Source: an uncultured Flavobacteriales bacterium (GTDB lineage: Bacteria > Bacteroidota > Bacteroidia > AKYH767-A > 2013-40CM-41-45). Taken from it: 64,000 nt of DNA. Location of the stretch: the NCBI GenBank assembly GCA_964595205.1, contig CAZQOQ010000015.1:281765-345764 (forward strand), in the 5' to 3' direction. A model generated the notes under the pieces. The model made no database searches. It was given only the letters and a program-made list of their open reading frames with translations, and was not told the DNA's origin. A program made the translations under genes and the position numbers. Shown one piece after another: positions 28,202 to 58,025 of this stretch. The first letter of the stretch is position 1, and the number at the start of each line of letters is the position of its first letter.

Positions 28202-28678
28202 ATGGCACCCTTAGTATTTTATGGCGATAAACTTAGCATCAAGGTTACTCGCGAGTTCAGGCAACTCGTGAATATCTCTATTGCGGCCGGGAAGTTCATA
28301 TTAATTCATCCTCATTATGAATTGATTAAAGAAGCCATGCGTCTTGATATGTTTGCCGATGATATGCTGGAAGATTTTGAGGTTCATAACTGGCAGTATG
28401 AAATCGGAGAGGTAATAACTTATGATTTCGAAGAATTACTCTTTTTCTATTCATTACTCGAGTTGAGCTGCAGGATCTTCCTTTGCAATATCGGTGATGA
28501 TTTGAAAGCCATGGCCATAGAAAGCGGAGAAACCAATGCCGAAGAGTTCGTGAGAGTGAGGAGCTTTTACCTGCGTCAGGCACAGGAATTTCTTATCAGG
28601 ATTCGTCAGTCGTTTAGCAACAATCCCGAGTTTATGGAACTCCAGGAAAAGATTGAGCAGTTGAACGTTCTCGCATAG
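28202..28678 (+). CDS. hypothetical protein (158 aa, acidic, helical)
   Basis: Clean ORF with no overlap. No recognisable motif. Confidence 0.35.
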   Translation: MAPLVFYGDKLSIKVTREFRQLVNISIAAGKFILIHPHYELIKEAMRLDMFADDMLEDFEVHNWQYEIGEVITYDFEELLFFYSLLELSCRIFLCNIGDDLKAMAIESGETNAEEFVRVRSFYLRQAQEFLIRIRQSFSNNPEFMELQEKIEQLNVLA

Positions 28679-32022: not shown

Positions 32023-32807
32023 TGAAAGGAATACTTGCAACAGTCTTTTTCGGGTTCGTTTACTGCATCGCTTTTTCCCAGAGCAACGATGAGTTGATGT
32101 CCATTAACAGAAAGGCAAAGGTGATTTTTGTAAAGCCGGAAACGCTTGATAAATTACTGATCGACCTTCGGAAATTTGAAGACCCCATCAATCACAGCCA
32201 GGATTCATTGATTCTTGATACGTATGATGCGATTGCTACGGGATATATGGCAAACAATCACTTCAAGAGAGCTTATGAAATTTATAACAAGCTGCTGACA
32301 AGAAAAGAAGAGATGCTTTCTGAAGACAGGATTGTTTCTATTAAGGCTGCAAATAATACCTATGAAAGCAGGCAACAGGTAGATGAAAAAAGGGTAATGG
32401 AATTGCAGGACAGCTTAAATACAATTACGAGCGACAACGAGAGCCTGTTAAGCGGTCGAGAGTCTTTTAAGAGAAATTTTTCTTTTCTATTGATTTTTCT
32501 AACCGCTATTTTTGCCGTAATGCTTGTTACCGCGGGCATACAGATGATGAACATACGATCTGCGCTTCAGAAAAACAGGGAAAGGATTAAAAGCATTCAC
32601 AGGGTTTCACTAATAGGAAAATATGGTAATGGCTTAATGGTTTCGCTGACGTCTTCATTAATGAGAATAAGTGAACTGATTAAGGACCTTCAGCAGCAAC
32701 TGAAAAAACATGATCAGGGAATTGCTTCAGTGAAACAGGCTAACCAGTCATTGACAGCGGCAGACAAGTATTTAAAGGAAACAATGATTAAATCAGAATC
32801 AAAATAA
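32022..32807 (+). CDS. kinase-less paralogue of the sensor module of the upstream histidine kinase (signal peptide, ~150-aa extracytoplasmic helical domain, TM, coiled-coil tail)
   Basis: Same architecture up to the TM (NFSFLLIFLTAIFAVMLVTAG) and a coiled-coil region, but the ORF ends before any HisKA/HATPase. ATG overlaps the stop of the kinase. Confidence 0.45.
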   Translation: MKGILATVFFGFVYCIAFSQSNDELMSINRKAKVIFVKPETLDKLLIDLRKFEDPINHSQDSLILDTYDAIATGYMANNHFKRAYEIYNKLLTRKEEMLSEDRIVSIKAANNTYESRQQVDEKRVMELQDSLNTITSDNESLLSGRESFKRNFSFLLIFLTAIFAVMLVTAGIQMMNIRSALQKNRERIKSIHRVSLIGKYGNGLMVSLTSSLMRISELIKDLQQQLKKHDQGIASVKQANQSLTAADKYLKETMIKSESK

Positions 32808-41223: not shown

Positions 41224-41313
41224 AAATTAATATTAATGAAGGTTAAAATGAATTTTAAAGAATAGTGAATATAGGTTATAAATTTATTTTGTCAAGTATT
41301 AGTTTCGATAAAG

Positions 41314-41387
41314 TCGGGGTGGCCGGATTCGAACCGACGACCTCCAGCACCCCATGCTGGCGCGCTACCAGGCTACGCTACACCCCG
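41314..41387 (-). tRNA. tRNA-Pro (anticodon GGG)
   Basis: The reverse complement folds as a cloverleaf: acceptor CGGGGTG/CACCCCG, D-arm GCGT/GCGC, anticodon stem CCAGC/GCTGG with loop ATGGGGT (anticodon GGG), T-arm GTCGG-TTCGAAT-CCGGC, discriminator A. No encoded CCA. Confidence 0.9.
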
Positions 41388-41769
41388 TAAACTTTATTTT
41401 TAGCAGATAGTTACCCGTCCATCCGTAAAATGGCCGGCTAAGATATAATTTTTAGCTTTTTTAAAAGGGATTTTAAGTGTAAAGTATCGCTGAATAAATT
41501 TATTTCTGGCTTCACAATTCCGGTGATGATGCATCCCCGGGAATTTCTTACGTCAGGTTAAAATTTTTTGAATGGGGAGTATGTGCATTATTGGTGTTTT
41601 TTAATATGATTTCATGATTTTTTTGAGACAGATCATAGCATCATTTAATCAATTCTTACAAATGGACCTGATTGCATGAATTACCCCCCTGCCCTCTTGC
41701 TCCGGATATATTTTAGTGTGTTCAGTAATAGCTCTGGTCATCAACAGGAGTTATTCGAAAAACACAAGT

Positions 41770-44700
41770 ATGAAACACTTTATAACAGGGAAATGGATTT
41801 TTGCCATCGTGTTGGTCGCCGGGTTGATAGTTACGGGCAAAACCTTTGCAAGCCATACGATGGGAGCCGATCTCACGTATGAAAACCTGGGTGGCAATAC
41901 CTATAAGATTACAGTTTCTTTTTATCGCGATTGTATTGGAATTCCGGCGCCGGCAAATCCGTTCGTCACCATCAACTCTTCGTCCTGTGGACAGAGTATG
42001 GGTGTTACCTGTTATCCGCGTCCCGGAACAGGACAGGAAGTGACACCGAGCTGTTCAAGTTCGGTTACTACATGTAATGGTGGTTCATTTACCGGAATCC
42101 AGGAATGGATTTATGACGGTATCGTAACACTTCCGGCCCAGTGCACTGACTGGATCTTTGGTTATTCATTGTGTTGCAGGAATGCAGCGATTACAACCAT
42201 TCATAATCCGAGTACAAACACATTCTATATATATGCCACATTAAATAATACGATCAGCCCGCAGAATTCATCACCGACGTTTTCAAACAAGCCGGTGCCG
42301 TTTCTTTGTCTCGGACAGCAGTTTTGCTTTAATCATGGTGCATATGATGCTGATGGAGATTCATTGGTATATTCTCTCATTACTCCGAAACAGACGATTT
42401 CCACGGATGTGAATTACAGACCGGGTTACAGTGCCTCAAACCCGTTGATCTCATCTCCTGCGACATCATTTAATACTTCCACGGGAGATATCTGCCTCAC
42501 ACCGCAGGCCCTCGAAGTAACGGTAATGGCAGTGTTGGTAAGCGAATACAGAAATGGTGTATTGATTGGAAGCGTTGAAAGAGATTTGCAGTTGACGGTG
42601 ATGAATTGTGCAAACAATCTTCCGTCACTCACCGGAATAAACGGCACAAATAATTTCAGCGTGACAGTTTGTGCAAATCAACAGACCTGCTTTGATATAT
42701 TTTCAAACGATCCGGATGGCGGCCAGCAACTGGAAGTTGATTGGAACTATGGAATTGCCGGCGGTAATTTCACCACTTCTTCAGCGTCGCACCCGGTTGG
42801 TACATTCTGCTGGACTCCATCATCCTCCGACATTGGCAATTCGTATACGTTCACGGCAACTGTAACAGATGATGCCTGTCCGTATAACGGAAGCCAGACT
42901 TACGCTTATACCGTGAATGTAATCGGCATGGATGTAGATGCCGGACCAGACCAGGCAATCGCCTGCAGCGACCTGGCAACAATTACCGCGGTGGCGTCTG
43001 GAGGGTCGGGTACATATACTTATTTATGGAATACGGGCTCAACCATGCAATCAATAACAGTTGGAGCCGGAACTTATGTTGTCACCGCGAGTGATGGTAC
43101 CTGTACAGCCACGGACACCGTAGTTATATCGATGCCATTCATACCGGTTGCAGCATTTACGAACAGCGCACCGGATTGCATTAACTCCCCGATCAGTTTT
43201 ACCGATCAATCGACCACGCCGGGAGGAAGTCTCAATTATTGGTTTTGGTTGTTTGATGATGGGGATTCTTCAAATCTTCAGAATCCTGTTCATCAGTTTC
43301 CGGGACCCGGCACATATAACGTTACACTGATTATTGAGAATACACTCGGATGTCGGGACACGGTGGTAAATCCGCTGGTCATACTGGCATACCCTTCGGC
43401 GGATTTTAACTGGGGACTGACCTGTCAGAACATAGGTGTCACATTCACAGACCAGACAGCACCATCGCCTGCATATTGGACATGGTCATTTGGCGATAGT
43501 ACATTTTCAAATCAACAGTATCCGACACACACTTATGCAGACACAGGTACGTATACTGTTACGTTAATTGCCGGGAACAGTATTGGATGTTATGACACGA
43601 TCAGTTACGACATCGTTATACTTCCATTACCGGTTATCAGTGCAAGTGCAGATCAGACTATTTGCGAAGGTGATTCGGTAACTCTCACTGCAACGGGAGG
43701 AATAAATTATTCATGGACGCCGGGAGGTTATTTTTCCCAGACAATTACAATTGCACCGACCGGTACCACGACTTTAATTGTGACAGGAATGGATGGAGTG
43801 GGTTGTTATACAACTGACACAGTTGATGTGATTGTAAAACCATTACCTCTTGTGAATGCCGGTGCGGACCAGGGGATTTGTTCCGGGAATTCTGCAACAC
43901 TTACCGCAACAGGAGCGATTTCTTATACATGGACGCCTGGAGGTTCAATTTCATCTTCCATTTCCGTGAATCCGGCAACCGCTGCCACTTATACGGTAAC
44001 AGGAACCGGAGCCAATGGTTGCACGGCCTCCGATGAAATAAACATTACCGTCAATCCGATGCCGGTAGCCGATGCTGGTCCGGATCTAATTGCCTGCAAT
44101 GCATCAAATACAATTCTTACTGCATCAGGCGGTACCAGTTATTTGTGGCTGCCGGGCGGCATGACAGGTTCTTCCATTACAGTAAACCCCGCGTCTACCC
44201 AGACTTATGAAGTAACCGTAACGGACGGTAATGGTTGTTCGGCCACTGATTCAGTTACGGTGACGATCAATCAGCGACCGACGGTTTCACTGCAATCATT
44301 CTTCCTCTGTGCAGGTTCAACCGCCACACTGGATGCCGGCAATGCGGGTTCAGATTTCTTATGGAGTAATGGGGACACTACGCAGGTAATCCAGATAAAT
44401 TCAGGCGGCGCCTATTCAGTAACAGTTACAAATAGTTTGGGATGTTCATCTACTGCTTCCTGTACTGTTACCTATGCAGCTACGATAACCATTAATCTTG
44501 GCAATGTGGCATTCTGCCAGGGAGACTCCGTATTGTTGGATGCCGGATATTCCGGAATGACCTATGCATGGACACCTGGTGGTGAGACATCCCAGACGAT
44601 ATACATTAAGAACACAGGATCCTATGGCGTAACGGTTACAGATACTTTGGGCTGCAGCGGGTCAATCAATATTTCAGCTGTTGTTAATCCGCTTCCGGTG

Positions 44701-47700
44701 CCCGATTTCAGTTCGGTTCCGACCTGCCAGGGAAACCAGATGAGTTTTACGGATGGTTCATCCGTATCGTCCGGTACAATCAGCGCATGGTCATGGAATT
44801 TTGGTGATGGAGGAACATCGACCGTGAGAAATCCGAATCACCTCTTTCCTTCAACCGGAAATTATAATGTAACGTTAACTTCCACTACCAATGCAGGATG
44901 TACGTCAACGGTTTCTCACCAGGCAACGGTAAATCCATTACCGGTTGCAGCATTTAATTTCAGCAACAGTTGTCTTGGGAATGCGGTTAATTTCACCGAT
45001 CAGTCGACAGTTTCATCAGGGAACATTGTAGATTACAACTGGAGTTTTGGAGATGCCTCTACTTCTACCCAACAGAACCCTTCGCATTTGTATGCTTCTC
45101 CGGGGAACTATTCAGTGAATCTGACAGTGACGACTGCCGGCGGATGTACACAAACGGTTAATCATACCGTTACTATTCATCCAAAGCCATCGGCTAATTT
45201 TTCGGTTCCTCAGGTTTGTCATGGTAACGCTTCTGTTTTCACCAACAGTTCCTCCATAACTACAGGAAGCATATCCGGAATTTCATGGGACTTCAACGAC
45301 ACGTACACATCAACCCAGAATTCTCCATCGCATACTTATGCTTCATCCGGCACTTACTCAGTGCGGCTGATTGTGACTTCTTCATTCGGATGTTCGGATA
45401 CGATTACAAAATCCGCTGATGTGAATGCTCGTCCGGTCGCAAATGCGGGCGCGAATACATCACTCTGTTCAGGAAACTCTGTTACTCTCTCCGCAACAGG
45501 TGGCGGCACATACAGCTGGACACCGGGCGGTGCAGTTACACAATCCATTTCCGTGTCGCCGGTTTCGAATGCGACTTATACAGTTACCGTCACAAACGCC
45601 AGTGGCTGTACATCGACAGATGATGTGGCGATAGTAGTTAACCCGATTCCGAATGCACAAGCGGGAGCTGACAGGTCGATTTGCAATGGAAGTTCTGTCG
45701 GACTTACCGGAGCGGGCGGCATTAGCTATCTATGGTCGCCGGGAGGAATGACAACAAGCGCCGTTACCGTTAATCCAAATTCGACAACCAGTTATATACT
45801 TACGGTAACGGATGCGAATGGCTGTACGGATAAGGATACGGTCGCCGTTACGGTTTATAATCTGCCGGTGGTTACGGCAACGCCGGACAACAGTATTTGC
45901 AATGGTTCAACGACATCGCTTGTTGCATCAGGAGCTACTTCCTATGTCTGGAGTCCTGTCGGTCTCACAACATCTTCCATACTCGTCACTCCATCTGTAA
46001 CATCAACATATACAGTGGTAGGAACAGGACCGGGTGGTTGTACCTCTTCCGATGTGGTTACGATCACGGTGAATACAGCTCCGGTCGTAAACATTCCTAC
46101 TGCATTTCTGTGTGATGGATTTTCGGTTACCCTGGATGCAGGAAATGCCGGCAGTACATTCGACTGGTCAACCGGCGAAACGACACAAACGATTTCTGTG
46201 ACAGATTCCGGAACTTATTCTGTGATTGTTACAGGTTCTAATGGTTGTCCGGCAATGGGAAATGTTTCGGTTCTGACGGTAGGGACATTTAATACGACAC
46301 CGGTAAATGCTTCAGTCTGCAGCGGGCAGAGTGTGAACCTGGACGCAGGAAATACCGGCAGCACGTATGCATGGTCGACCGGACAAACCACGCAGGTTAT
46401 TTCTGTGAATGCGGCCGGAAATTATACCGTTACGATCACCGACATTTATGGATGCACAGGAACCTTACAGAATTTCGTGAGCCTGGATCCATTACCCGTA
46501 ACCGACTTTACACTCAATTCAGTCTGCCTGGGACTCCCGGTAAGTTTCAATAACACTTCCTCGATCAGCAGCGGTTCCATTTCAAGTGTATTGTGGAATT
46601 TCGGTGATGGTGGCAGCTCAACGAATTCAAACATTCCGTATGTATATGCTTCTTATGGAAACTACACGGTCACTCTAACGGCGACGAGCGACAGGGGCTG
46701 TACTTCAACTGCCACAAAACAGGCTACAGTAAACCCACTGCCGGTTGCAGACTTCAGCACCAGCGTGACCTGTGAAAACGTTGCGGCAGCATTTACAAAC
46801 CAATCGACAATACCTGCGGGTACAATAACTCAATGGGACTGGGATTTTGGCGACGGAACTTTTTCCTCGTCGACAACGCCAACACATGATTATCCGTCTG
46901 CAGGAACATTTACAACATCACTCATTGCAACGAGCAATTTCGGTTGTACGGATACGATAAGCAGGAGTGTGACCATACTTGGACTTCCGGTTGCGTCGTT
47001 TTCGGCGGCAAATGGCTGTGCACAGAGTAATATCAGCCTTGCGAATACTTCGAGTCCGAATGGCACAACGATTTCATCGTATCAATGGAATTTCGGAAAT
47101 GGCAATACATCTACGGCAGCTCAGCCTGTGGTTCAATTCAGTAATCCGGGCACCTTCCAGGTAAGTTTAGTGGCCATATCAACTTCAGGATGCAGGGATA
47201 CAGTCGTTGCTCCGGTCACGGTTTATCCTCTGCCAGTTGCGGCATTCTCTGCTACACCGGTTTGTGTGAACACCTCTGCATCTTACCTGAATAATTCCTC
47301 CATCTCCAGTGGCTCCATTCAAAATTACTACTGGTTGCTTGGCGACAATTCGACTTCTTCGCTCACAAATCCGAATCATACTTATTCGGCAGACGGGAAT
47401 TTCACTGTGAGTCTGATAGCCACGTCTTCCTTTGGGTGCATTGATACGTCTGTTCAGAGCCTGACAATTTATCCGCAGCCGCAGGTGAATGTGACAGGTA
47501 CCGATGTTTGTTATGGGAACAATACAAGCTTTGCGAATAACTCGACAATAGCAAACGGAAGCATTGCGTCCTGGTTATGGATTTTCAACGATGGCAGCAT
47601 TTCAAATCAAAACACGCCTGTCCACCAGTTTGGTTCAACAGGTTCGTATAACGTAAGCGTAACGGCAATATCCGATCACGGATGCCAGTCGAACGGAAGC

Positions 47701-49476
47701 ACGAATGTTAATGTATTCCCTAACCCTGTTGCTGCCTTTGTCACCGCCAATGTTTGCTTCGGAAGCAACACACAGTTGGTAAATCAGTCGTCAGTTACGG
47801 GTGGAGGAAGTCTTTCCAGTTACTGGACATTCAGCGACGGAGGAAGTTCGACAAGCAGCAATCCCGTTCACCTGTTTCCGTCAGCAGGAAATCATAATAT
47901 CACTCTCCAGGTAGTATCACAAAACGGCTGTACGGGCCAGGTTACGAAAGGTCTTGACGTCTATCATTTGCCTGTGGCGAGATTCTCGGCGCCTGATAAT
48001 TGCTCCGGCACCCCGGTCTCATTCACCAATCAGTCCACTTCACAGGACGGACACATCACATCATTCCTTTGGGGATTCGGTGATGGTACGTTTTCATTCG
48101 ACGAGAATCCCGTACATCAATATCCAGATTCGGGTCAGTACAACGTAGATCTCATCACGATAACTTCTTACGGCTGCGCGGGTGAATACAACGATTCAGT
48201 TTCCGTATTCCCGAACCCTGTTGCAAGAATTCAGGCAAACAGCGCTTGCGTGGGTTCGCCGATTTCCTTTGTGGGAACAACTAACCTCAACGGTGGAGTA
48301 AGTTATGCCTGGACCATCAGTAATTCATTTACGACCAGTCAGCCTTCGTTCAGTTATACTTTTAATGCTCCGGGAAACTATAATATTTCACTTGTAGCCA
48401 CTACATCTAACGGCTGCAGCGGAACGCAGTCAGACATGGTTAGCGTTTATCCAAACCCAGTACCTTCGTTCTCGAGTGACGAAGTATGTTACGCCTCACG
48501 CACGACATTCAGCAACCTATCTACGATTCCATCGGGTACAGTGAGCAGCTACTCCTGGAATTTCGGTGATAACCAGCAATCGTCACAAAGTAATCCAACG
48601 CACCTGTATGCTTCGGCAGGAACATATAATGCGGTATTGGCCGTTACTTCCGACAGGGGTTGCACATCCAATATTACCAGGCAGGTTGTAGTACATCCTC
48701 CGCCTGTAGTTAATTTCTCATCAGGAGCTCAGGGCTGTAAACCAGTAAGTGCGACGTTTACAGAAAATTCTTCCATCTCATCAGGAACCATTACGGGCAG
48801 GTTATGGAATTTTGGAGATGGAGATGTATCAACAGATCTGAATCCGACACATGTTTATGATCAAAGCGGTAGTTATGATGTCACGCTCACGGTCGTATCC
48901 GATTTCGGTTGCCAGGCTTCCGCACATCAGTCGGGTATCATCAGGGTGTTCCCGGATCCGGTAGCAGACTTCAGCGCAGACCCAACGGTTGTTGACATAG
49001 AAATGCCGGTCGTGCATTTCCAAAATGAATCGAGCGGATACTCTACCTACCAGTGGGTCTTTGGAGATGGCACTTTTACAACCAGCGAATTAAATCCTAC
49101 ACATACGTTTTCAGATACCGGTACATACCAGGCATTGCTCATCACGATGAATAATTTCGGATGCATGGATTCTATCCTTAAGACGATCGAGGTCAGGCTT
49201 CATTCAACATTGTTCATTGCCAATTGTTTTACACCTAATGGCGATGGTAACAACGACGACTTCAGGCCTTATTATACCAACATGAAAGAAATTAAAGTAT
49301 GGATTTTTGACCGCTGGGGAAAACTGCTTACCTCATGGGATAGCCTGGAAGGATCATGGGATGGTTTCTACCAGGGCAGAAAGTGTCAGTCCGATACCTA
49401 TGTTTATAAAATTGCCGGAACAGGCCTTGACGGTAAACAATCCGAATGGGTCGGGCATGTAAGCATTGTCTACTAA
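41770..49476 (+). CDS. giant (~2570 aa) secreted repeat protein: N-terminal Cys-rich unique domain, ~11 Cys-bracketed Ig-like repeats, ~20 PKD repeats, C-terminal T9SS type-B sorting domain (gliding-motility-associated CTD). Putative adhesin/SprB-like surface protein
   Basis: Signal peptide MKHFITGKWIFAIVLVAGLIVTGKTFA (ATG at 41770; ORF track start is 41716). PKD signatures 'WxFGDG..S...NPxHxY...G.Y.V.L' repeated. Ig-like units 'C.G.S.TL.A.GG..Y.W.PGG...TYTVT.TD.NGC...D.V.V'. The C-terminal 'CFTPNGDGNNDDFRPYY...YVYKI' is the TIGR04131-type CTD. Confidence 0.85.
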   Translation: MKHFITGKWIFAIVLVAGLIVTGKTFASHTMGADLTYENLGGNTYKITVSFYRDCIGIPAPANPFVTINSSSCGQSMGVTCYPRPGTGQEVTPSCSSSVTTCNGGSFTGIQEWIYDGIVTLPAQCTDWIFGYSLCCRNAAITTIHNPSTNTFYIYATLNNTISPQNSSPTFSNKPVPFLCLGQQFCFNHGAYDADGDSLVYSLITPKQTISTDVNYRPGYSASNPLISSPATSFNTSTGDICLTPQALEVTVMAVLVSEYRNGVLIGSVERDLQLTVMNCANNLPSLTGINGTNNFSVTVCANQQTCFDIFSNDPDGGQQLEVDWNYGIAGGNFTTSSASHPVGTFCWTPSSSDIGNSYTFTATVTDDACPYNGSQTYAYTVNVIGMDVDAGPDQAIACSDLATITAVASGGSGTYTYLWNTGSTMQSITVGAGTYVVTASDGTCTATDTVVISMPFIPVAAFTNSAPDCINSPISFTDQSTTPGGSLNYWFWLFDDGDSSNLQNPVHQFPGPGTYNVTLIIENTLGCRDTVVNPLVILAYPSADFNWGLTCQNIGVTFTDQTAPSPAYWTWSFGDSTFSNQQYPTHTYADTGTYTVTLIAGNSIGCYDTISYDIVILPLPVISASADQTICEGDSVTLTATGGINYSWTPGGYFSQTITIAPTGTTTLIVTGMDGVGCYTTDTVDVIVKPLPLVNAGADQGICSGNSATLTATGAISYTWTPGGSISSSISVNPATAATYTVTGTGANGCTASDEINITVNPMPVADAGPDLIACNASNTILTASGGTSYLWLPGGMTGSSITVNPASTQTYEVTVTDGNGCSATDSVTVTINQRPTVSLQSFFLCAGSTATLDAGNAGSDFLWSNGDTTQVIQINSGGAYSVTVTNSLGCSSTASCTVTYAATITINLGNVAFCQGDSVLLDAGYSGMTYAWTPGGETSQTIYIKNTGSYGVTVTDTLGCSGSINISAVVNPLPVPDFSSVPTCQGNQMSFTDGSSVSSGTISAWSWNFGDGGTSTVRNPNHLFPSTGNYNVTLTSTTNAGCTSTVSHQATVNPLPVAAFNFSNSCLGNAVNFTDQSTVSSGNIVDYNWSFGDASTSTQQNPSHLYASPGNYSVNLTVTTAGGCTQTVNHTVTIHPKPSANFSVPQVCHGNASVFTNSSSITTGSISGISWDFNDTYTSTQNSPSHTYASSGTYSVRLIVTSSFGCSDTITKSADVNARPVANAGANTSLCSGNSVTLSATGGGTYSWTPGGAVTQSISVSPVSNATYTVTVTNASGCTSTDDVAIVVNPIPNAQAGADRSICNGSSVGLTGAGGISYLWSPGGMTTSAVTVNPNSTTSYILTVTDANGCTDKDTVAVTVYNLPVVTATPDNSICNGSTTSLVASGATSYVWSPVGLTTSSILVTPSVTSTYTVVGTGPGGCTSSDVVTITVNTAPVVNIPTAFLCDGFSVTLDAGNAGSTFDWSTGETTQTISVTDSGTYSVIVTGSNGCPAMGNVSVLTVGTFNTTPVNASVCSGQSVNLDAGNTGSTYAWSTGQTTQVISVNAAGNYTVTITDIYGCTGTLQNFVSLDPLPVTDFTLNSVCLGLPVSFNNTSSISSGSISSVLWNFGDGGSSTNSNIPYVYASYGNYTVTLTATSDRGCTSTATKQATVNPLPVADFSTSVTCENVAAAFTNQSTIPAGTITQWDWDFGDGTFSSSTTPTHDYPSAGTFTTSLIATSNFGCTDTISRSVTILGLPVASFSAANGCAQSNISLANTSSPNGTTISSYQWNFGNGNTSTAAQPVVQFSNPGTFQVSLVAISTSGCRDTVVAPVTVYPLPVAAFSATPVCVNTSASYLNNSSISSGSIQNYYWLLGDNSTSSLTNPNHTYSADGNFTVSLIATSSFGCIDTSVQSLTIYPQPQVNVTGTDVCYGNNTSFANNSTIANGSIASWLWIFNDGSISNQNTPVHQFGSTGSYNVSVTAISDHGCQSNGSTNVNVFPNPVAAFVTANVCFGSNTQLVNQSSVTGGGSLSSYWTFSDGGSSTSSNPVHLFPSAGNHNITLQVVSQNGCTGQVTKGLDVYHLPVARFSAPDNCSGTPVSFTNQSTSQDGHITSFLWGFGDGTFSFDENPVHQYPDSGQYNVDLITITSYGCAGEYNDSVSVFPNPVARIQANSACVGSPISFVGTTNLNGGVSYAWTISNSFTTSQPSFSYTFNAPGNYNISLVATTSNGCSGTQSDMVSVYPNPVPSFSSDEVCYASRTTFSNLSTIPSGTVSSYSWNFGDNQQSSQSNPTHLYASAGTYNAVLAVTSDRGCTSNITRQVVVHPPPVVNFSSGAQGCKPVSATFTENSSISSGTITGRLWNFGDGDVSTDLNPTHVYDQSGSYDVTLTVVSDFGCQASAHQSGIIRVFPDPVADFSADPTVVDIEMPVVHFQNESSGYSTYQWVFGDGTFTTSELNPTHTFSDTGTYQALLITMNNFGCMDSILKTIEVRLHSTLFIANCFTPNGDGNNDDFRPYYTNMKEIKVWIFDRWGKLLTSWDSLEGSWDGFYQGRKCQSDTYVYKIAGTGLDGKQSEWVGHVSIVY

Positions 49477-49512
49477 AGAAAGTGCGTTTGGCTTTTCATG
49501 GTGCGCAAAGAG

Positions 49513-49550
49513 CCTCCGGTAATTCATTTCACCGGGGGTTCTTTATTTTA
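49513..49550 (+). terminator. probable rho-independent terminator of the giant gene (CCTCCGGT-N10-ACCGGGGG followed by TTCTTTATTTTA)
   Basis: 8-bp stem (one G·U) plus U-rich tail, 37 nt after the stop codon. Confidence 0.45.
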
Positions 49551-49560
49551 AGCAATAGTA

Positions 49561-49767
49561 CTAATTTGAAACAATTTGTTTTTTATTATTCCAGTCAGGA
49601 GGATATACCGTTCGTGTATAAGGCCGCGTTCTCAATAACGACCGCAGGTAAGTGATCTGGTTTGGCTGACCAAATACGGCACGCAGCTTTTTGAAGTTTT
49701 CAAGTAACGTAAGCTGGTTTTCATTCTTTGGAAAGTAATCGGTATAAAAGGAAATTTCCTGCTCCAT
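49561..49767 (-). CDS. small hypothetical ORF (68 aa), doubtful
   Basis: Only non-overlapping ORF in a 940-bp intergenic gap. No motif. Confidence 0.2.
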   Translation of the reverse strand: MEQEISFYTDYFPKNENQLTLLENFKKLRAVFGQPNQITYLRSLLRTRPYTRTVYPPDWNNKKQIVSN

Positions 49768-50031
49768 TTTTGGTTTTAGTATTTGACGATTTTTAATTCA
49801 ATACTTTCCTGAATGGAAAAAGGTTTTATAAAATGATAAATTTTTATCGCGAGAATTATTTTCAGCGGTAAAGTCTGTAGTTAGATTATCCTGCATAACA
49901 CATTTAGAATGATTGATTAATTAAATTCTGCCGACACTTATGTTTACAATAGAAAAGCGTTGCGACCGGAGTCACAACGCTAAACCAAATACCTAAACAT
50001 AACCTGAAAACAATTTCTTTAGCAGGGAAAA

Positions 50032-50089
50032 GGTAACAGCTGCATAAAAATAAGTTGGAAACACTAAAACTTATGTAGCAGCTGTTACC
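50032..50089. repeat. long imperfect inverted repeat / stable hairpin (12-bp stem GGTAACAGCTGC, internal loop, 7-bp stem ATAAGTT, 11-nt loop)
   Basis: Read directly from the sequence. Not followed by a T-run. Lies ~320 bp upstream of the prolyl oligopeptidase gene in an AT-rich 940-bp non-coding stretch. Confidence 0.6.
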
Positions 50090-50412
50090 GAAAAATTCCT
50101 GGGTTAGAGTTGAGGGGATTTACGGAAACCCATTGCCTGCAATATCAGCGAACTGATATTTTGTATTACTAAATTAAGAACGAGATAATGGGTCAAATGT
50201 ATGTTCATTGATATACTCAGAATGTCATTTTTTGTGAAATAATCATTTTATAAGGTGAATCAATCAAATTTCGTTGTGAAACAGCCGTCGTATAGAGCAT
50301 AGCGCCGAAAACGAATATTAATCCGTTTATTTGCAATTATATAAGAAAATCAACTTTAATACTTTTTAACAATACTAAAAAGTAGTTTAGCGATTCACTC
50401 AAGATTATAATT

Positions 50413-52542
50413 ATGAACATTAAATTATTTGCATGTAGTTTATTATTCGTCACTGCTCAGCTGAATGCACAGCCGCTGAATTATCCGGTTACAAAAAAGA
50501 CCGGCCAGACTGATACATATTTTGGCACGGAGGTAAAGGATCCTTACCGGTGGCTGGAAGATGATCGTTCTGCAGAAACTGCAAACTGGGTGAAGGAACA
50601 AAATGCCGTAACTGAAAATTATCTTTCCGGGATACCGTTCAGGTCAAAGGTAAAGGACCGGATGACACAACTGTGGAATTTTCCCAAGTCCTCCACCCCG
50701 TTTAAAGCCGGCAACAATTATTTCATCTATTCAAATAACGGATTGCAAAACCAGTTTGTATTAAATATTCTACGAGGAAATTTTAATGCTAAACCCGAAG
50801 TCTTCATCGACCCCAATACACTTTCTGCTGATGGTACCATTAACCTGGGGACAGTTTCGGCATCGCACGACGGAAAATATGTTGCTTATGCTTTGTCTAA
50901 GTCGGGCAGCGACTGGCAGGAAATTTATATTAAGAGCGTTGAAGGAAAACAACTGGATGATAAAATTGAGTGGGTGAAATTTTCCGGTATCTCATGGAGA
51001 GGAGATGGATTTTATTATTCTAGGTATGACGAACCTGAATCCTCACAGGTGCTGAAAGGGAAAAACGAATTTCATAAGATTTATTATCACCGGCTGGGTG
51101 ACAATCAGAAAAAAGACAAGCTGGTATATGATGATAAGCAATACCCCCTCAGAAATTTCTACGCAGCAGTTACGGAAGATGAGGATTACCTGATTGTTTA
51201 CGCTTCAGAGGCTTCTCCGGGAAACAGCCTGATGGTTCAGAATCTGAAAAAGCCAGATAGCCCTTTCATCAATCTCGTGGAGTCATTCGATGATAAATAT
51301 GATGTGATCGACAACGAGGGTTCCCAATTTTTCGTTCTTACAAATAAAGGCGCATCCAACTACCGTTTGGTGATGATGGATGCAGACAAGCCGAAGGAAG
51401 CATGGAAGGACATCATTCCCGAGAGCAGTGATGTATTGCTTGAAGTCGTGGCGGGAAACAACCTGTTTGTTGCAAGGTATATGAAGGACGCCGTAAGTGT
51501 TCTTAAAGTCTATTCCCGCACAGGTACTTTTATAGGAGATATTAAAACTGAAAGTATCGGGACCGTCGACCAGCTTTCTTCCGGGAAAAAGGATGAGGAC
51601 CTTTTCTATGCGCTTTCGAATTTCACATTGCCTTCCGTGATTTATCATTATAACCTGCGTACCAAATTACAGGAAGTATATTTCCAGCCGAAGATTGATT
51701 TTCCTGCCGATGAATACGAGACGAAGGAGATTTTTTACAACAGTAAAGACGGCACGAAGATTCCCATGTTCATCGTTCATAAAAAAGGATTGGCAATGGA
51801 TGGAAATAATCCGACTCTTCTGTTTAGTTACGGAGGATTTAATATCCCGATGATTCCCATCTTTAAGATCGAACGGCTGGTATTCCTCGAAAACGGAGGC
51901 GTCTTTGCCATGCCATGCATTCGTGGCGGCGGCGAATATGGTGAGAAATGGCATATGGATGGTACCGGTTTGAAGAAACAGAACGTCTTTGATGATTTCA
52001 TAGCAGCTGCCGAATCTTTAGTCAGAGAAAAATATACACGTCCGTCCAAATTAGCTATCAATGGCCGCTCGAATGGCGGCTTGCTGGTCGGCGCCGTCAT
52101 GACCCAGCGCCCCGATCTCTTCAAAGTTGCAATACCAACCGTAGGTGTTATGGACATGTTGCGATATCACACCTTCACGATCGGATGGAGATGGAAAACC
52201 GACTATGGCTCCAGCGAGGATGAGGTTAATTTCAAAAACCTCCTCTCCTATTCTCCATTGCACAATATCAGGGAGAACACTGAGTATCCTGCAACGCTTG
52301 TTACCACAGGCGATCATGACGACCGCGTGGTTCCGGCACATTCATTCAAATTCATTGCAACGCTGCAGGAGAAAAGCTTAAAAAAGAATCCTGCGCTCAT
52401 ACGTATAGATATCAATTCCGGTCATGCCGGGAATACTGTTCTCGGATCCAGCAAGCCCGTTTCAAAACAGATCGAGGAACAAACGGACATCTTCACCTTT
52501 ATGATGTATAACCTGGGAATGACCCTGAAGGCCAGACCCTAG
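50413..52542 (+). CDS. prolyl oligopeptidase (S9A prolyl endopeptidase)
   Basis: Signal peptide, N-terminal 'YPVTKKTGQTDTYFGTEVKDPYRWLEDD' POP N-terminus, beta-propeller, catalytic 'INGRSNGGLLVGAV' (GxSxGG), C-terminal Asp/His region. 709 aa. Confidence 0.9.
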   Translation: MNIKLFACSLLFVTAQLNAQPLNYPVTKKTGQTDTYFGTEVKDPYRWLEDDRSAETANWVKEQNAVTENYLSGIPFRSKVKDRMTQLWNFPKSSTPFKAGNNYFIYSNNGLQNQFVLNILRGNFNAKPEVFIDPNTLSADGTINLGTVSASHDGKYVAYALSKSGSDWQEIYIKSVEGKQLDDKIEWVKFSGISWRGDGFYYSRYDEPESSQVLKGKNEFHKIYYHRLGDNQKKDKLVYDDKQYPLRNFYAAVTEDEDYLIVYASEASPGNSLMVQNLKKPDSPFINLVESFDDKYDVIDNEGSQFFVLTNKGASNYRLVMMDADKPKEAWKDIIPESSDVLLEVVAGNNLFVARYMKDAVSVLKVYSRTGTFIGDIKTESIGTVDQLSSGKKDEDLFYALSNFTLPSVIYHYNLRTKLQEVYFQPKIDFPADEYETKEIFYNSKDGTKIPMFIVHKKGLAMDGNNPTLLFSYGGFNIPMIPIFKIERLVFLENGGVFAMPCIRGGGEYGEKWHMDGTGLKKQNVFDDFIAAAESLVREKYTRPSKLAINGRSNGGLLVGAVMTQRPDLFKVAIPTVGVMDMLRYHTFTIGWRWKTDYGSSEDEVNFKNLLSYSPLHNIRENTEYPATLVTTGDHDDRVVPAHSFKFIATLQEKSLKKNPALIRIDINSGHAGNTVLGSSKPVSKQIEEQTDIFTFMMYNLGMTLKARP

Positions 52543-55360: not shown

Positions 55361-56122
55361 ATGTCGTCTAAACTGTTTGAATTTTTGACCAGCCGTGTAT
55401 TCTTCAGGAATGTTGCCATTCTTATAATTGCAATGATCATCGGTTTCTTCTCTCTGAATGCCATGCTCAATAACTACACGCACCATGGGGAAAGCATTTC
55501 TGTGCCTGATCTGACCGGACTGGAGATTTCGAAACTCGACAGCATTTTAGTTACTCATGGCTTCCTGTACAAAGTAATTGATTCATTGTATGACGGAGAG
55601 AGGATTCCCGGAACGGTCATCGACCAGGATCCGGCGCCGAAGAGTAAAGTAAAAGAGAACCGTACCATTTACCTTACGATTAATGCGGTCAATCCACCTG
55701 ATGTTAAGATGCCGGATCTTGTTGATGTGTCTTTCAGGCAGGCACAGGCTATGCTGCAGTCATACGGACTGGTTACCGGTGATGTGGTTTATCGTTCAGA
55801 TCTAGCCAAAAATGCAGTGCTCGAACAACTATATAAAAACCGCACCATCAAGCCCGGAACAATGATTCCAAAAGGCGCCGTCATCGATCTCGTTTTAGGC
55901 GACGGCCTCGGAGACATTGAAGTCGAAGTTCCGGATCTGACCGGTATGACACTTGAAGAAGCAAAGACCAAACTCGTACATTCATCACTGGCATTGGGTA
56001 TCGTAGAATACGAGGATGAATCGGATGAGAAATCCTCTGCACGGGTTTACAGGCAGAATCCTGATGCGGGCAGTGGTATTACGCTCAAACAGGGTTCGGG
56101 TGTGGATGTATTCCTGCGTTGA
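55361..56122 (+). CDS. PASTA domain-containing membrane protein (TM + 3 PASTA repeats, no kinase/PBP domain)
   Basis: TM 'VAILIIAMIIGFFSL', then three ~65-aa units ('SVPDLTGLEISKLDSIL...', 'KMPDLVDVSFRQAQAMLQSYGL...', 'EVPDLTGMTLEEAKTKLVHSSL...'). Confidence 0.75.
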   Translation: MSSKLFEFLTSRVFFRNVAILIIAMIIGFFSLNAMLNNYTHHGESISVPDLTGLEISKLDSILVTHGFLYKVIDSLYDGERIPGTVIDQDPAPKSKVKENRTIYLTINAVNPPDVKMPDLVDVSFRQAQAMLQSYGLVTGDVVYRSDLAKNAVLEQLYKNRTIKPGTMIPKGAVIDLVLGDGLGDIEVEVPDLTGMTLEEAKTKLVHSSLALGIVEYEDESDEKSSARVYRQNPDAGSGITLKQGSGVDVFLR

Positions 56123-56171
56123 GATTCCCGTTTATATGCCGGCCAATATTCGTACTTTTGCCCTCCCTCCT

Positions 56172-58025
56172 ATGAAGACAAGCAAAATTCTCTTTCTGAT
56201 TTTAGTACTGACGGTTTCTTTTTCGGACATAAAAAGCCAGGAGACGATTATTCCCCTGAATAACAATCCCGCGCTCATGAATAAAGCGAAGTCGAAGAAG
56301 ATGATGAGAATGATGTCTGCGGTTGACGATACGATTCCCATTCCTTTCCGTGATGATTTTTCACGCCCGGGTGTTTATCCTGACGAGACTTTGTGGCTGG
56401 ACAGCGGTGTTTTTATAAACAATAATTATCCTGATTTCCCGGTTACGATCGGAGTTGCAACCTTTGACGGTTTGAATTACATGGGATGCCCCTATCAGCC
56501 GGCATCAACACAGGATTCGGTTGCGGATGTCCTCACTTCGCATTGTATCGATCTGGCACTTGCATCAACGGATACTTCCGTATGGTTTAGTTTTTTCTAT
56601 CAGCCGCAGGGTATGGGCGATGCGCCTGAATCAGGCGACTCGCTTGTACTTCAGTTTAAGGACTCAGGCGGGACATGGAAAAATGTCTGGGCAGTGGATG
56701 GCCGGGAAGATTCGGCTTTTCAAAGAGTGAATATCAGAGTTACCGGAGCTGAATATCTGTTCAAAGGATTTCAATTCAGATTTTACAACATTGCAACCGT
56801 AAACGGAAACCGTGATCACTGGCATCTCGATTATGTTTGGCTTGACAAGAACAGATTCGAGAACGACGGCCTCGAAGATTTTTCACTGATCAAACCAATT
56901 GGATCATTGCTTACAGAATTTACTGCAATGCCCTATTCGCATTATAAGGCCCTGGGTACGCCTCCGGTTGCAGGAACATTGGTGCCCGATATGTCCGATT
57001 CCGTTTACGTCTTGAATTATGGTCCCGCCAGCTTCACGCAGTTCATAGACATTATACAAGTCGGCCAGCCGGTACCGGACTACCATGTTTCCACCGGAAT
57101 ATTCAACGGCAATCCTCTTTCGTATGTAAACAATACACTTCCGCTGAATTATTATTTCCCGGCATTGCCCGGCGACAGTGTCGATTACCTTGTTAAGTCA
57201 TTTCTTGATGATCCGGTAGCTCGATTGAATAAATACAACGATACGAGTTATTACTATCAGCATTTTTATAATTATTATTCTTATGACGATGGCAGCGCTG
57301 AAGTCGGGTATGGAATTACAGGAAACGTGGATGTGTCGATGGCTTATTTATTCAATGTGAAAGTCGCCGATACGCTGAGAGGGGTACAGATTTATTTTAA
57401 TCCCACCGGACTGGATGTTACGAATAAACTATTTCAACTTACGGTCTGGAGCGATATCAATCTGACTACGAATCAATCCATCGAAATGTACAGGATGATC
57501 AACCAGAAACCCGGCGAATGCGACAGCCTGAACGGGTTCAAGACATATTTGTTTGACACAACACTAGTGGTGGGGCCGGGAAATATATGGGTTGGAATGA
57601 TACAGAACGAGCCCCAGGCACTCTATGGTGTGGGACTCGACAGGAATACGGACTCCCGCACGAAGATGTATTATCACATCGATGGTATATGGAGCGGCTC
57701 GAGTATTTTTGGTTCATGGATGATTCGTCCGCTGTTTGGAAAGAAAATTCCTGTTGTTTCTGTTGAGGAAAATGAAAACCTGGTATCAGATTTTTCTGTT
57801 TTTCCAAACCCGGCAAACGATCATGCACACATACGGTTCAACAATCGTGGTGACAGAAACTACACCTGCCAGATTTTCGATTGCATAGGTTCGCTTTTGC
57901 GTGAAGAATTGTTATCACCGGATGGAAATATTGATATTTCAGCATTGAGCAAGGGCATTTATATTGTCAGAATATATGCTCCAGGCGACCGTACCGGGAA
58001 AGTACAGAAGCTGATCATTCAATAG
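56172..58025 (+). CDS. secreted protein of unknown function with T9SS type-A C-terminal sorting domain. Start chosen at the ATG at 56172; the ORF track's 56016 overlaps the PASTA gene
   Basis: Signal peptide MKTSKILFLILVLTVSFSDIKSQ. CTD 'FSVFPNPANDHAHIRF...GIYIVRIYAPGDRTGKVQKLIIQ'. Confidence 0.65.
   Translation: MKTSKILFLILVLTVSFSDIKSQETIIPLNNNPALMNKAKSKKMMRMMSAVDDTIPIPFRDDFSRPGVYPDETLWLDSGVFINNNYPDFPVTIGVATFDGLNYMGCPYQPASTQDSVADVLTSHCIDLALASTDTSVWFSFFYQPQGMGDAPESGDSLVLQFKDSGGTWKNVWAVDGREDSAFQRVNIRVTGAEYLFKGFQFRFYNIATVNGNRDHWHLDYVWLDKNRFENDGLEDFSLIKPIGSLLTEFTAMPYSHYKALGTPPVAGTLVPDMSDSVYVLNYGPASFTQFIDIIQVGQPVPDYHVSTGIFNGNPLSYVNNTLPLNYYFPALPGDSVDYLVKSFLDDPVARLNKYNDTSYYYQHFYNYYSYDDGSAEVGYGITGNVDVSMAYLFNVKVADTLRGVQIYFNPTGLDVTNKLFQLTVWSDINLTTNQSIEMYRMINQKPGECDSLNGFKTYLFDTTLVVGPGNIWVGMIQNEPQALYGVGLDRNTDSRTKMYYHIDGIWSGSSIFGSWMIRPLFGKKIPVVSVEENENLVSDFSVFPNPANDHAHIRFNNRGDRNYTCQIFDCIGSLLREELLSPDGNIDISALSKGIYIVRIYAPGDRTGKVQKLIIQ

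Follow-up and report, generated by a model that had tools for sequence, protein, structure and literature searches.

The locus most probably encodes a cell-surface filament, an adhesin, that is vertically inherited and core to the lineage of an uncultured Bacteroidota bacterium. Within the window, the whole stretch of 64,000 nt that was analysed, the gene is a single intact open reading frame with a maximum extent of 41716-49476 on the forward strand; the CDS at 41770-49476 encodes 2568 aa, close to the approximately 2570 aa of the original prediction. The ATG at 41770 is supported both by an identical Logan contig, on which the gene was called independently, and by alignment of the start region of six orthologues. 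The product is composed of a signal peptide, an N-terminal head, 11 Ig_7/SprB-type and 16 PKD repeats interleaved in the order 1-2-5-3-5-11, and a type B C-terminal sorting domain (CTD; Table 1). Hence it is probably a giant surface protein, secreted as a T9SS type B substrate and made of two interleaved families of beta-sandwich repeats, acting as an adhesin.

Table 1. Features of the giant gene and its immediate flanks, with positions in the window
Feature	Position	Strand	Basis or remarks
tRNA-Pro(GGG)	41313..41387	-	ARAGORN; Rfam RF00005, 60.9 bits
Upstream intergenic region (promoter/leader), 382 nt	41388..41769	+	Between tRNA and ATG
Sec signal peptide, aa 1-27	41770..41850	+	Predicted cleavage between TFA and SH; read from the sequence by inspection
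Head module, aa 28-385 (358 aa), 16 Cys, DxDGD-type motifs	41851..42924	+	Without Pfam or NCBIfam model
Ig repeat 1, aa 386-455, SprB/Ig_7-type, Cys-bracketed	42925..43134	+	Pfam SprB PF13573, 28.7 bits (cut-off 28)
PKD repeats 1-2, aa 456-620	43135..43629	+	Pfam PKD_4 and PKD
Ig_7-type repeats 2-6, aa 621-975	43630..44694	+	PF19081, 40.5 bits (cut-off 27.3), 4 stretches
PKD repeats 3-5, aa 976-1220	44695..45429	+	Pfam PKD_4 and PKD
Ig_7-type repeats 7-11, aa 1221-1575	45430..46494	+	Pfam Ig_7, 46.3 bits (cut-off 27.3), 5 stretches
PKD repeats 6-16, aa 1576-2477	46495..49200	+	Pfam PKD_4 and PKD
T9SS type B C-terminal sorting domain, aa 2478-2568, and stop codon	49201..49476	+	PF13585, TIGR04131
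Intrinsic-terminator-like hairpin, then U-rich tail	49507..49544	+	14-bp stem; RNA folding

The original reading of a T9SS surface protein with two interleaved repeat families is backed by curated domain models, PKD, Ig_7, CHU_C and TIGR04131 all scoring above their cut-offs. Tandem PKD domains (PF18911/PF00801) were detected above cut-off in 16 stretches, with scores of 697 bits for PKD_4 and 371 bits for PKD. The 11 repeats that are not of PKD type are bracketed by cysteines; the first alone reaches the SprB model, and that narrowly, whilst the other ten match Ig_7, the score of which exceeds the gathering score in both five-repeat blocks. The block boundaries that had been proposed (Ig x1, PKD x2, Ig x5, PKD x3, Ig x5, PKD x11) were right to around 15 nt. 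At the C terminus, CHU_C (PF13585) scores 45 bits against a cut-off of 27 over aa 2483-2560 of 2568, and TIGR04131 scores 56.6 bits against a cut-off of 35 over aa 2484-2551, in agreement with the gliding-motility-type T9SS domain first suggested. Five conserved motifs of such CTDs, A to E, have been defined in F. johnsoniae as necessary for secretion (PMC12618676). Two further proteins encoded in the same window, at 56016-58025 (+) and 59138-61000 (-), carry type A CTDs (PF18962), which indirectly supports the use of T9SS by the host. The N terminus, MKHFITGKWIFAIVLVAGLIVTGKTFA followed by SH, is signal-peptide-like by inspection, as had been predicted: a positively charged n-region precedes a hydrophobic core of 16 residues, with a cleavage site between T-F-A and S; all the orthologues have an equivalent hydrophobic N terminus and small-x-small site, despite 31% identity across the signal peptide. 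Overall, 48% of residues are S, T, G, A or P, and the proportions of S+T (27%) and K+E+R (2.8%) are typical of extracellular beta-sandwich stalks.

The gene is found at the same junction, between asnB and a prolyl oligopeptidase gene, in all five of the closest species representatives (L004 to L008), which come from different projects. The shared gene order is trmA-nlpC-prt-aroK-usp-terC-asnB-[tRNA]-GIANT-prolyl oligopeptidase, in which GIANT is the gene described here, and the architecture H-i-P2-i5-P3-i5-P11-B is identical in all five genomes. Including that of the window, the six orthologous products are 2567-2569 aa long, with just two one-residue indels over 2569 alignment columns. The dN/dS ratio is 0.074 between L006 and L007, and ranges from 0.014 to 0.116 in every block; the gene is under strong purifying selection. 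Conservation follows a gradient, with identities of 75-87% for the head, 77-79% for Ig repeat 1 and 78% for the CTD (70-84% across the orthologues), against 53-62% for the stalk, where the last two PKD repeats (59-65%) are better conserved than those in the middle (45-53%). Ig repeat 1 is thus conserved together with the head. Judged by these comparisons, the gene belongs to the ordinary core of its lineage and has been inherited vertically. Repeat number is usually assumed to vary among giant repeat adhesins; here a filament of 2568 aa and 27 repeats stays colinear, to within two residues, between species that differ by 23-32% in their housekeeping enzymes. Two more distant homologues (L002 and L003) are not syntenic, and presumed frameshift errors in their assemblies have broken the genes up into many ORFs; as these homologues may be paralogues, they are uninformative on the question of whether the gene lies on an island.

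The repeats themselves are old. Paralogous repeats share a mean protein identity of 37-39%, with a peak of 58%, and the best internal repeat at the DNA level is 72% identical over 98 nt; direct-repeat and TRF scans of 41300-50500 returned nothing beyond one trivial 8-nt array and matches that were short and weak. The most similar pairs are Ig03 and Ig07 (58%), Ig04 and Ig08 (56%), PKD03 and PKD06 (55%) and Ig05 and Ig10 (48%), and the block of Ig repeats 7-11 is an ancient duplicate of that formed by repeats 2-6. One relative, P0121, is without one i5/P3 block. The 'internal near-repeats' of the original prediction are therefore strongly diverged, and the recombination hot spot that they were expected to constitute is contradicted by a repeat number and order that are identical in six species. 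That the repeat count is instead an artefact, with repeats collapsed or expanded during assembly, is exceedingly improbable, even with 27 tandem repeats in a window apparently taken from a metagenome-assembled genome: the divergence of the repeats at the DNA level, with no tandem arrays, leaves nothing for assemblers to collapse, an identical 2568-aa product is present in the Logan assembly of run SRR13076506, and the five other species give near-identical lengths, one of them from a 658-kb 'tig' contig, the name of which suggests a long-read assembly. The diverged repeats, the fixed orthologue lengths and a dN/dS of 0.07 together argue against both a recombination hot spot and an assembly artefact.

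Placement next to tRNA-Pro had originally been taken as a hint of horizontal acquisition, but that the gene is an adhesin island integrated beside this tRNA is very unlikely. The gene does physically adjoin tRNA-Pro(GGG), has a bulk GC content of 0.472 against about 0.43 in the flanks, and is followed by an AT-rich spacer of 936 nt (GC 0.34); furthermore, more distant head-bearing homologues are found in unrelated contexts in other genomes. However, the tRNA, which the gene was said to lie downstream of, is on the opposite strand, the two genes being divergent, and its 3' end, the usual target of integration, faces asnB and points away from the giant gene. No second copy of either half of the tRNA (with up to 3 mismatches) was found downstream of the gene or elsewhere in the 64-kb window, in which a short-word BLAST search with the tRNA and its flanks produced no match above chance save the tRNA itself. 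Nor is there an integrase, transposase or phage gene among the window's scanned ORFs (minimum length 150 aa in 1-28 kb and 120 aa in 28-64 kb, nested overlapping ones excepted), in line with the earlier failure to find an integrase or a flanking direct repeat. L006 and L007 have the tRNA at this site too; L004, L005 and L008 are without it and nevertheless keep the gene at its junction. The tRNA is a divergent neighbour with no functional tie to the giant gene.

The codon composition had also been described as GC-richer than that of the neighbouring genes. Bulk GC is indeed raised, relative to values of 0.38-0.46, but the whole of the excess falls at codon position 2 (0.536 against 0.30-0.40 in the flanks), whilst GC3, at 0.441, is inside the flank range of 0.42-0.54, and the synonymous-codon distance to the pooled flanks, 0.092 (0.119 when subsampled), compares with 0.07-0.196 for housekeeping neighbours. 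Hence the excess stems from the amino acid make-up of the protein, with its high content of S, T, G, A and P, rather than from codon usage. With a synonymous composition like that of the flanks and syntenic orthologues in five of the five closest species, the island reading is, on comparative grounds, already refuted for the time since the six species diverged. This is a clean negative: a tRNA neighbour and the bump in bulk GC produced by an S/T/G/A/P-rich repeat protein can mimic a genomic island, and GC by codon position, together with synteny in five related species, settles the question.

The Cys-rich, unique N-terminal domain, initially put at around 380 aa, is a module of 358 aa that matches no family in Pfam or NCBIfam at E<=10. 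An AF2 model of this head (pLDDT 91.4, pTM 0.84) is all-beta and consists of three packed beta-sandwich domains; searched as a whole against the PDB with Foldseek, it matches tandem Ig and protocadherin EC domains with E values of about 5e-8, at a low TM (about 0.2). The first of the three domains (N1), taken alone, has no significant match among solved structures, the best E value being 0.027. A sequence-profile search of the PDB with the head alignment returned only type A CTDs, which were discounted as they derive from extra columns contributed by homologues and not from the head. Also rejected was an LPMO-like 'histidine brace', for which the candidate was a near-invariant A-S-H after the signal peptide: by the -3/-1 rule cleavage falls before the Ser in most orthologues, which makes the His residue 2 and not the first residue, and an oxidase-like fold was not found either.

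The head occurs in 9262 representative clusters (at 50% identity) in the Bacteroidota, always at the N terminus and directly after the signal peptide. The proteins bearing it extend from 426 to 4813 aa and pair it with type A or type B T9SS sorting domains; there are also proteins of around 475-495 aa in which a type A CTD is joined straight to the head. Between the orthologues it is more conserved (79-84%) than asnB (68-77%), which, alongside a stalk length fixed within one residue in six species, suggests that a specific conserved ligand may be held at a defined distance from the cell, the stalk serving as a spacer or ruler and not as a freely expandable array. We tentatively raise the possibility that the head (aa 28-385), with the adjoining Ig repeat, is an undescribed and very widespread tip-adhesin module of the Bacteroidota. 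As a very large domain family that is unmodelled in Pfam and NCBIfam, it merits both a domain model and a binding study, since it is probably the working tip of T9SS-secreted surface filaments that number in the thousands, in habitats such as activated sludge and stream biofilms.

The 382-nt intergenic stretch separating the tRNA from the ATG corresponds to the 380-bp leader of the original prediction. Within it lies a conserved element, TTCTTACAAA(TG) at 41653-41664, approximately 105 nt before the ATG, which is invariant in all six orthologous loci and is not a general motif of the window. Searching the whole window with Rfam revealed only the tRNA, and no leader RNA or riboswitch; a scan for sigma-70 promoters and terminators gave matches no commoner than in shuffled sequence. 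The terminator scan missed the hairpin that follows the gene, owing to a loop of more than 8 nt, and direct folding recovered it (-22.3 kcal/mol, z = -4.07, with none of 200 shuffles folding as well). Downstream of the gene are thus found this hairpin, a convergent 68-aa ORF, the AT-rich spacer and the prolyl oligopeptidase gene. A decayed porP or sprF in the spacer was considered and rejected, the 68-aa ORF being the only one there, with no long ORF.

No porP/sprF-like gene adjoins the giant gene downstream, lies in the 936-nt spacer or is found among the scanned ORFs of the window. An adjacent gene of this kind is common but not obligatory, and its absence defines the 'orphan' type B substrates (PMC12618676); since none is adjacent here, the protein appears to join this known class as an 'orphan' type B T9SS adhesin. 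Judging from its domains and from published type B substrates, it would leave the cytoplasm by the Sec route, by virtue of its signal peptide, and would then be passed on to a PorP/SprF-like outer-membrane shuttle, whose gene would lie elsewhere in the genome and which would keep the protein at the cell surface. The 27 tandem beta-sandwich repeats would form a stalk of the order of 100 nm, if each domain is assumed to span about 4 nm, and would present the disulfide-rich, three-domain Ig/cadherin-like head, along with Ig repeat 1, at the distal N-terminal tip, where ligand binding would take place.

Such a filament might be static or be carried by a gliding machinery; since the orphan type B substrates of F. 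johnsoniae end up on the gliding track, analogy slightly favours a mobile one. One form of this, a sub-case of the surface adhesin rather than exclusive of it, is a true SprB-type gliding-motility adhesin: a mobile filament driven along a helical track by the gliding motor, and needed for surface movement. This is possible, but we consider it doubtful. The type B CTD is as in SprB, one repeat reaches the SprB Pfam model, and neither a PorE-like nor a SprF-like gene is adjacent; orphan type B substrates lacking a PorE-like neighbour were sent to the gliding machinery in F. johnsoniae (PMC12618676). However, the single SprB repeat is marginal (28.7 against 28 bits) in a stalk composed mostly of PKD and Ig_7 repeats, the locus has no operon of the sprC/sprD/sprF type, its neighbours being asnB and tRNA-Pro upstream and prolyl oligopeptidase downstream, and the ORFs scanned in the 64-kb window include no gld or spr genes. 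The original label of 'SprB-like' can therefore be retained only loosely, for the one marginal repeat match and not for any sprF or sprCD context. SprB, moreover, is around 6,500 aa long, and the protein described here has approximately 40% of that length. A more distant alternative, which we regard as improbable, is a secreted enzyme degrading polysaccharide or protein, or a carbohydrate-binding scaffold, with the repeats as linkers and the N terminus as a catalytic or CBM module. Secreted glycosidases and proteases commonly carry PKD and ChitinaseA_N-like Ig domains, and here there is a weak, sub-threshold ChitinaseA_N stretch, whilst the N1 model weakly resembles CBM21 and purple acid phosphatase N-terminal domains (E 0.03-0.15, TMq <=0.47). 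Yet these CBM-like matches are not significant, Pfam and NCBIfam profile searches across all 2568 aa detected no catalytic domain at any threshold, the three beta-sandwiches of the head include no active-site-like fold, and the head-bearing relatives sampled have only repeats and CTDs, with no enzymes. A carbohydrate-binding role for the tip would be compatible with the adhesin.

Several described systems resemble this surface adhesin. The F. johnsoniae orphans Fjoh_1123 and Fjoh_1720 as well as Fjoh_4934 (PMC12618676) are likewise large putative adhesins with a TIGR04131-type CTD and a Sec signal peptide, and likewise have no adjoining porP/sprF-like or porE-like gene, the shuttle being expected elsewhere in the genome; the likeness rests on CTD, signal peptide and gene context, the host here belonging to an uncultured, deeply divergent Bacteroidota lineage. 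SprB of the same species is also a giant repetitive beta-sandwich filament secreted by T9SS via a type B CTD, which is bound by SprF (PMC9143113), and the Ig_7 repeats share their Cys-bracketed form with the one repeat that reaches the SprB-repeat model. However, SprB is far longer, consists predominantly of SprB repeats and comes from an spr operon in which sprF follows, whereas in the giant protein, whose gene has no sprF downstream, 16 of the 27 repeats are PKD and the head is a separate family. With PG1035 of Porphyromonas gingivalis, which is described as the only type B substrate of an organism that does not glide and is anchored through PorP-PorE (PMC9143113), the likeness is in the CTD and the expected anchoring, by binding of a PorP-like beta-barrel and not by A-LPS linkage. 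Finally, the CHU_C 'large proteins' of Cytophaga hutchinsonii and the proteins generically annotated by NCBI as 'gliding motility-associated C-terminal domain' or PKD-domain proteins follow the same grammar of signal peptide, variable beta-sandwich repeats (PKD, Ig_7, SprB) and CHU_C, Ig_7 itself being described by Pfam as 'CHU_C associated'; the subfamily to which the giant protein belongs is set apart from these by its specific 358-aa N-terminal head.

The region contains a single long open reading frame, with a maximal extent of 41716-49476 (+). The GTG at 41716 is merely the earliest possible start, and the sequence preceding the ATG at 41770 is not conserved; this ATG aligned with an ATG in all five orthologues from the closest species genomes, and an independent gene call on the identical contig (Logan assembly of run SRR13076506) produced the same 2568 aa protein. 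By inspection, the N terminus is a typical Sec signal peptide, MKHFITGKWIFAIVLVAGLIVTGKTFA, with SH following the predicted cleavage site. Pfam detected 16 PKD domains (PKD_4, 697 bits; PKD, 371 bits) and a C terminal CHU_C domain (45 bits, cut-off 27), whilst NCBIfam matched TIGR04131, the T9SS type B sorting domain (56.6 bits, cut-off 35). The repeat layout was derived from cysteine spacing and small HMMs made from the repeat units. The Cys-bracketed non-PKD repeats of the original prediction proved to be real, with its nucleotide boundaries for the repeat blocks correct to within about 15 nt: both five-repeat blocks matched Ig_7, the Pfam 'Ig-like domain CHU_C associated' (40.5 and 46.3 bits, cut-off 27.3), and the isolated first repeat barely reached the SprB-repeat model (28.7, cut-off 28). 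A hairpin detected by RNA folding looks like the terminator of the gene.

Features of the giant gene, its product and the surrounding window
Feature	Position	Strand	Detail
Signal peptide	aa 1-27
Head	aa 28-385
Order after head			Ig x1, PKD x2, Ig x5, PKD x3, Ig x5, PKD x11, CTD
Hairpin with U-tail	49507-49544		14-bp stem; -22.3 kcal/mol, z = -4.07
tRNA-Pro(GGG)	41313-41387	minus
Upstream flank genes (housekeeping)			pst operon, SusC/D pair, trmA, nlpC/P60, phosphoribosyltransferase, aroK, usp, terC, asnB
Downstream flank genes (housekeeping)			prolyl oligopeptidase, double Ddl, PASTA protein
Element TTCTTACAAA(TG)	41653-41664	+	about 105 nt upstream of the start codon
ORF, 68 aa (MEQEISFYTDYFPKNENQLTLLENFKKLRAVFGQ...)	49561-49767	-	convergent with the giant gene
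Spacer	49477-50412		936 nt, GC 0.34
ORF, 901 aa	52651-55356	+	Dala_Dala_lig_N x2 stretches, Dala_Dala_lig_C x4 stretches
T9SS substrate	56016-58025	+	type A CTD (PF18962), no other recognisable domain
T9SS substrate	59138-61000	-	SBBP beta-propeller repeats, SprB repeat, type A CTD (PF18962)
Five ORFs, 158-479 aa	5156-6595, 15916-16752, 23789-24655, 32022-32807, 28202-28678		no Pfam match at the thresholds used

The position beside a tRNA had hinted at horizontal acquisition, and the codon composition had looked GC-richer. Bulk GC is indeed higher in the giant gene (0.472, against 0.38-0.46 in 19 neighbouring genes), but this reflects amino acid content rather than codon usage: the excess is at the second codon position (GC2 0.536, against 0.30-0.40), with GC3 (0.441) inside the neighbours' range of 0.42-0.54. 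Accordingly, S, T, G, A and P make up 48% of the protein (29% in neighbours) and K, E and R just 2.8% (17.5% in neighbours), whilst the synonymous-codon distance to the pooled flanks, 0.092 (0.119 +/- 0.013 when subsampled to 550 codons), compares with 0.07 to 0.196 for the housekeeping neighbours. Nor does the gene lie downstream of the tRNA, as had been supposed, since the two are divergent and the tRNA 3' end, the usual target of integrases, faces asnB. The reported absence of an integrase or flanking direct repeat was borne out: no integrase, transposase or phage-like gene was present in any scanned ORF of the 64 kb window (the scan took in every ORF down to 150 aa in 1-28 kb and down to 120 aa in 28-64 kb, excluding nested overlapping ones), and no repeats of tRNA fragments were found anywhere in the window.

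Synteny, which proved decisive, was assessed using AsnB as a query against one genome per GTDB species. Close matches (68-77% identity) were limited to five genomes, all uncultured Bacteroidota MAGs, beyond which identity falls to 38%. All five have the order trmA-nlpC-prt-aroK-usp-terC-asnB-giant gene-prolyl oligopeptidase, yet tRNA-Pro(GGG) separates asnB from the giant gene in only two (L006 and L007); L004, L005 and L008 retain the gene and lack the tRNA, with no masked bases able to hide one. Counting the window itself, then, three of six genomes have the tRNA at this junction and three lack it, the flanking genes being unchanged, and the variable element is the tRNA, not the giant gene. 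GC3 and synonymous codon usage in line with the flanks, coupled with synteny in all five close relatives, are the combination that the original prediction had itself named as refuting an island; they therefore overturn the proposal of acquisition at the tRNA for the period since the six species separated, and the gene fails every test for belonging to a tRNA-associated island.

The internal repeats had also been described as near-repeats, and hence a recombination hot spot. However, paralogous units share a mean protein identity of only 39% (Ig) or 37% (PKD), with a maximum of 58%; at the DNA level the best repeat reaches only 72% over 98 nt, and no array emerged from Tandem Repeats Finder. 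The alignment of the six orthologues, all 2567-2569 aa long, needs just two one-residue indels in 2569 columns, and all six share the domain string H-i-P2-i5-P3-i5-P11-B (H, head; i, Ig repeat; P, PKD repeat; B, type B CTD). For most units, orthologous repeats are closer to each other than are paralogous repeats inside one protein, and so there is no sign of concerted evolution. Such strict conservation of length and colinearity is noteworthy in a 27-repeat protein. Collapse of repeats during assembly is very unlikely, given the divergence of the repeats and the agreement of six assemblies from different projects. Stalks in the wider family vary enormously, examples being H-i24-P2-B and H-i-P49-B; repeats therefore turn over across long timescales, but not inside the six-orthologue clade. 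The best-matching paralogue pairs (Ig03~07, Ig04~08, Ig05~10 and PKD03~06), along with the H-i-P2-i5-P11-B string of a relative, P0121, indicate that an [Ig x5 + PKD] block was duplicated in the distant past.

Between L006 and L007, the only unsaturated pair (dS 0.39), dN/dS was 0.074 overall and 0.014 to 0.116 in individual blocks. Conservation between orthologues is graded: 75-87% in the head, 77% in the first Ig repeat, 78% in the CTD and 53-62% in the stalk blocks. Conservation is higher in the final pair of PKD units (59-65%) than in those mid-stalk, which fits the published observation that type B secretion signals can start as far as about 235 aa before the C terminus (PMC12618676). In the close genomes the head is more conserved than AsnB (79-84% versus 68-77%).

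Neither Pfam nor NCBIfam matches the head (residues 28-385), even at E = 10, and it has no sequence relatives in the PDB. AlphaFold2, using a 30-sequence alignment, gave a confident all-beta model of three beta-sandwiches (pLDDT 91.4, pTM 0.84), whose structural neighbours in a Foldseek search of the PDB were tandem Ig and cadherin ectodomains (Dscam Ig7-9, titin I67-69 and protocadherins; E about 5e-8 to 1e-6); TM was merely about 0.2, so the folds are alike and the domain arrangement different. Domains 2 and 3 have DxDGD-type motifs (DADGDSLVY and SNDPDGG), which we take to be of the kind found in Ca2+-binding cadherin-like domains. Domain 1 modelled alone (pLDDT 86) had no significant solved neighbour (best E 0.027). 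In an exhaustive phmmer search, 9262 representative clusters contained the head, 2059 of them at E<=1e-30, a noteworthy size for an unmodelled family. Its place is always residues ~25-390, right after the signal peptide, and the proteins that carry it range from 426 to 4813 aa. Of the 42 carriers sampled, 16 have a type A CTD at their end and 13 have CHU_C, whilst 22 have SprB repeats and 13 PKD; many proteins of ~475-495 aa consist simply of the head and a type A CTD. Thus the head is a widespread, self-contained N terminal module that, on sequence evidence, can sit on a stalk of any length and be exported by either T9SS signal, a pattern that would be expected of a ligand-binding tip.

At the signal peptide junction (41845-41856; aa 26-29), an A-S-H tripeptide is nearly invariant, being present in at least 90% of 42 diverse head-bearing proteins (alignment A3); by the predicted cleavage, its conserved His would be residue 2 of the mature protein, and may serve as a metal site, in processing or structurally. 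More distant head-bearing homologues at L002 10001-17750 (GCA_016719685) and L003 10001-15028 (GCA_016721305) are each split into seven consecutive same-strand ORFs, most likely through assembly frameshift errors rather than as real pseudogenes. Public annotations in the family are therefore often fragments, such as a 456 aa 'SprB repeat-containing protein'.

Upstream of the gene, TTCTTACAAA(TG) is invariant at all six orthologous loci amid otherwise unalignable intergenic DNA, and shows no enrichment elsewhere in the window (11 matches at up to one mismatch, for 7.9 expected). This candidate site for a promoter or regulator has no obvious fit to the Bacteroidota TAnnTTTG -7 consensus. The 68 aa ORF, also predicted as a gene on the Logan contig, has no Pfam match; a conserved counterpart occupies its position in L005 and L008 (54-57% identity, E about 1e-19) and is absent from L004, L006 and L007. 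The AT-rich spacer, which has no Rfam match, contains strong hairpins at 49956-49981 (minus strand) and in an inverted repeat near 50027-50090. Two stretches, 49990-50040 and 50113-50265, show 68-80% conservation with L004-L007, and may be regulatory or small RNA sequence upstream of the prolyl oligopeptidase gene. The 901 aa ORF comprises two tandem D-Ala-D-Ala ligase units and is a predicted fused double Ddl, with a PASTA-domain protein after it.

The host probably uses the T9SS, given that the window encodes two proteins with type A CTDs. Type B substrates do not use PorV. A cognate PorP/SprF-like outer membrane protein extracts them from the SprA/Sov translocon and stays bound to them at the surface (PMC9143113; PMC12618676). 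Its gene is usually found immediately downstream of that for the substrate. The giant protein would likewise be pulled from the translocon by a PorP/SprF-like protein and then held at the surface. No porP/sprF-like gene lies directly downstream of it, where the terminator, convergent ORF and spacer are followed by the prolyl oligopeptidase gene; the protein thus counts among the 'orphan' type B substrates. The three such substrates of F. johnsoniae are served by a single orphan shuttle and directed to the gliding machinery, and static anchoring is seen instead for substrates that have PorE-like and SprF-like genes alongside (PMC12618676); by analogy, the giant filament may be mobile. As Pfam and NCBIfam reveal no catalytic domain, the best-supported function is a long surface filament presenting a conserved binding head, which would mediate attachment to surfaces, particles or other cells. 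The label 'SprB-like' fits it only loosely, as with one marginal SprB repeat and no spr operon it falls short of SprB proper. Its type B CTD, PKD and Ig_7 domains do pass the tests for their families: judged by its domains, it is a T9SS type B giant repeat adhesin, of the CHU_C/SprB/'gliding motility-associated C-terminal domain' protein type.
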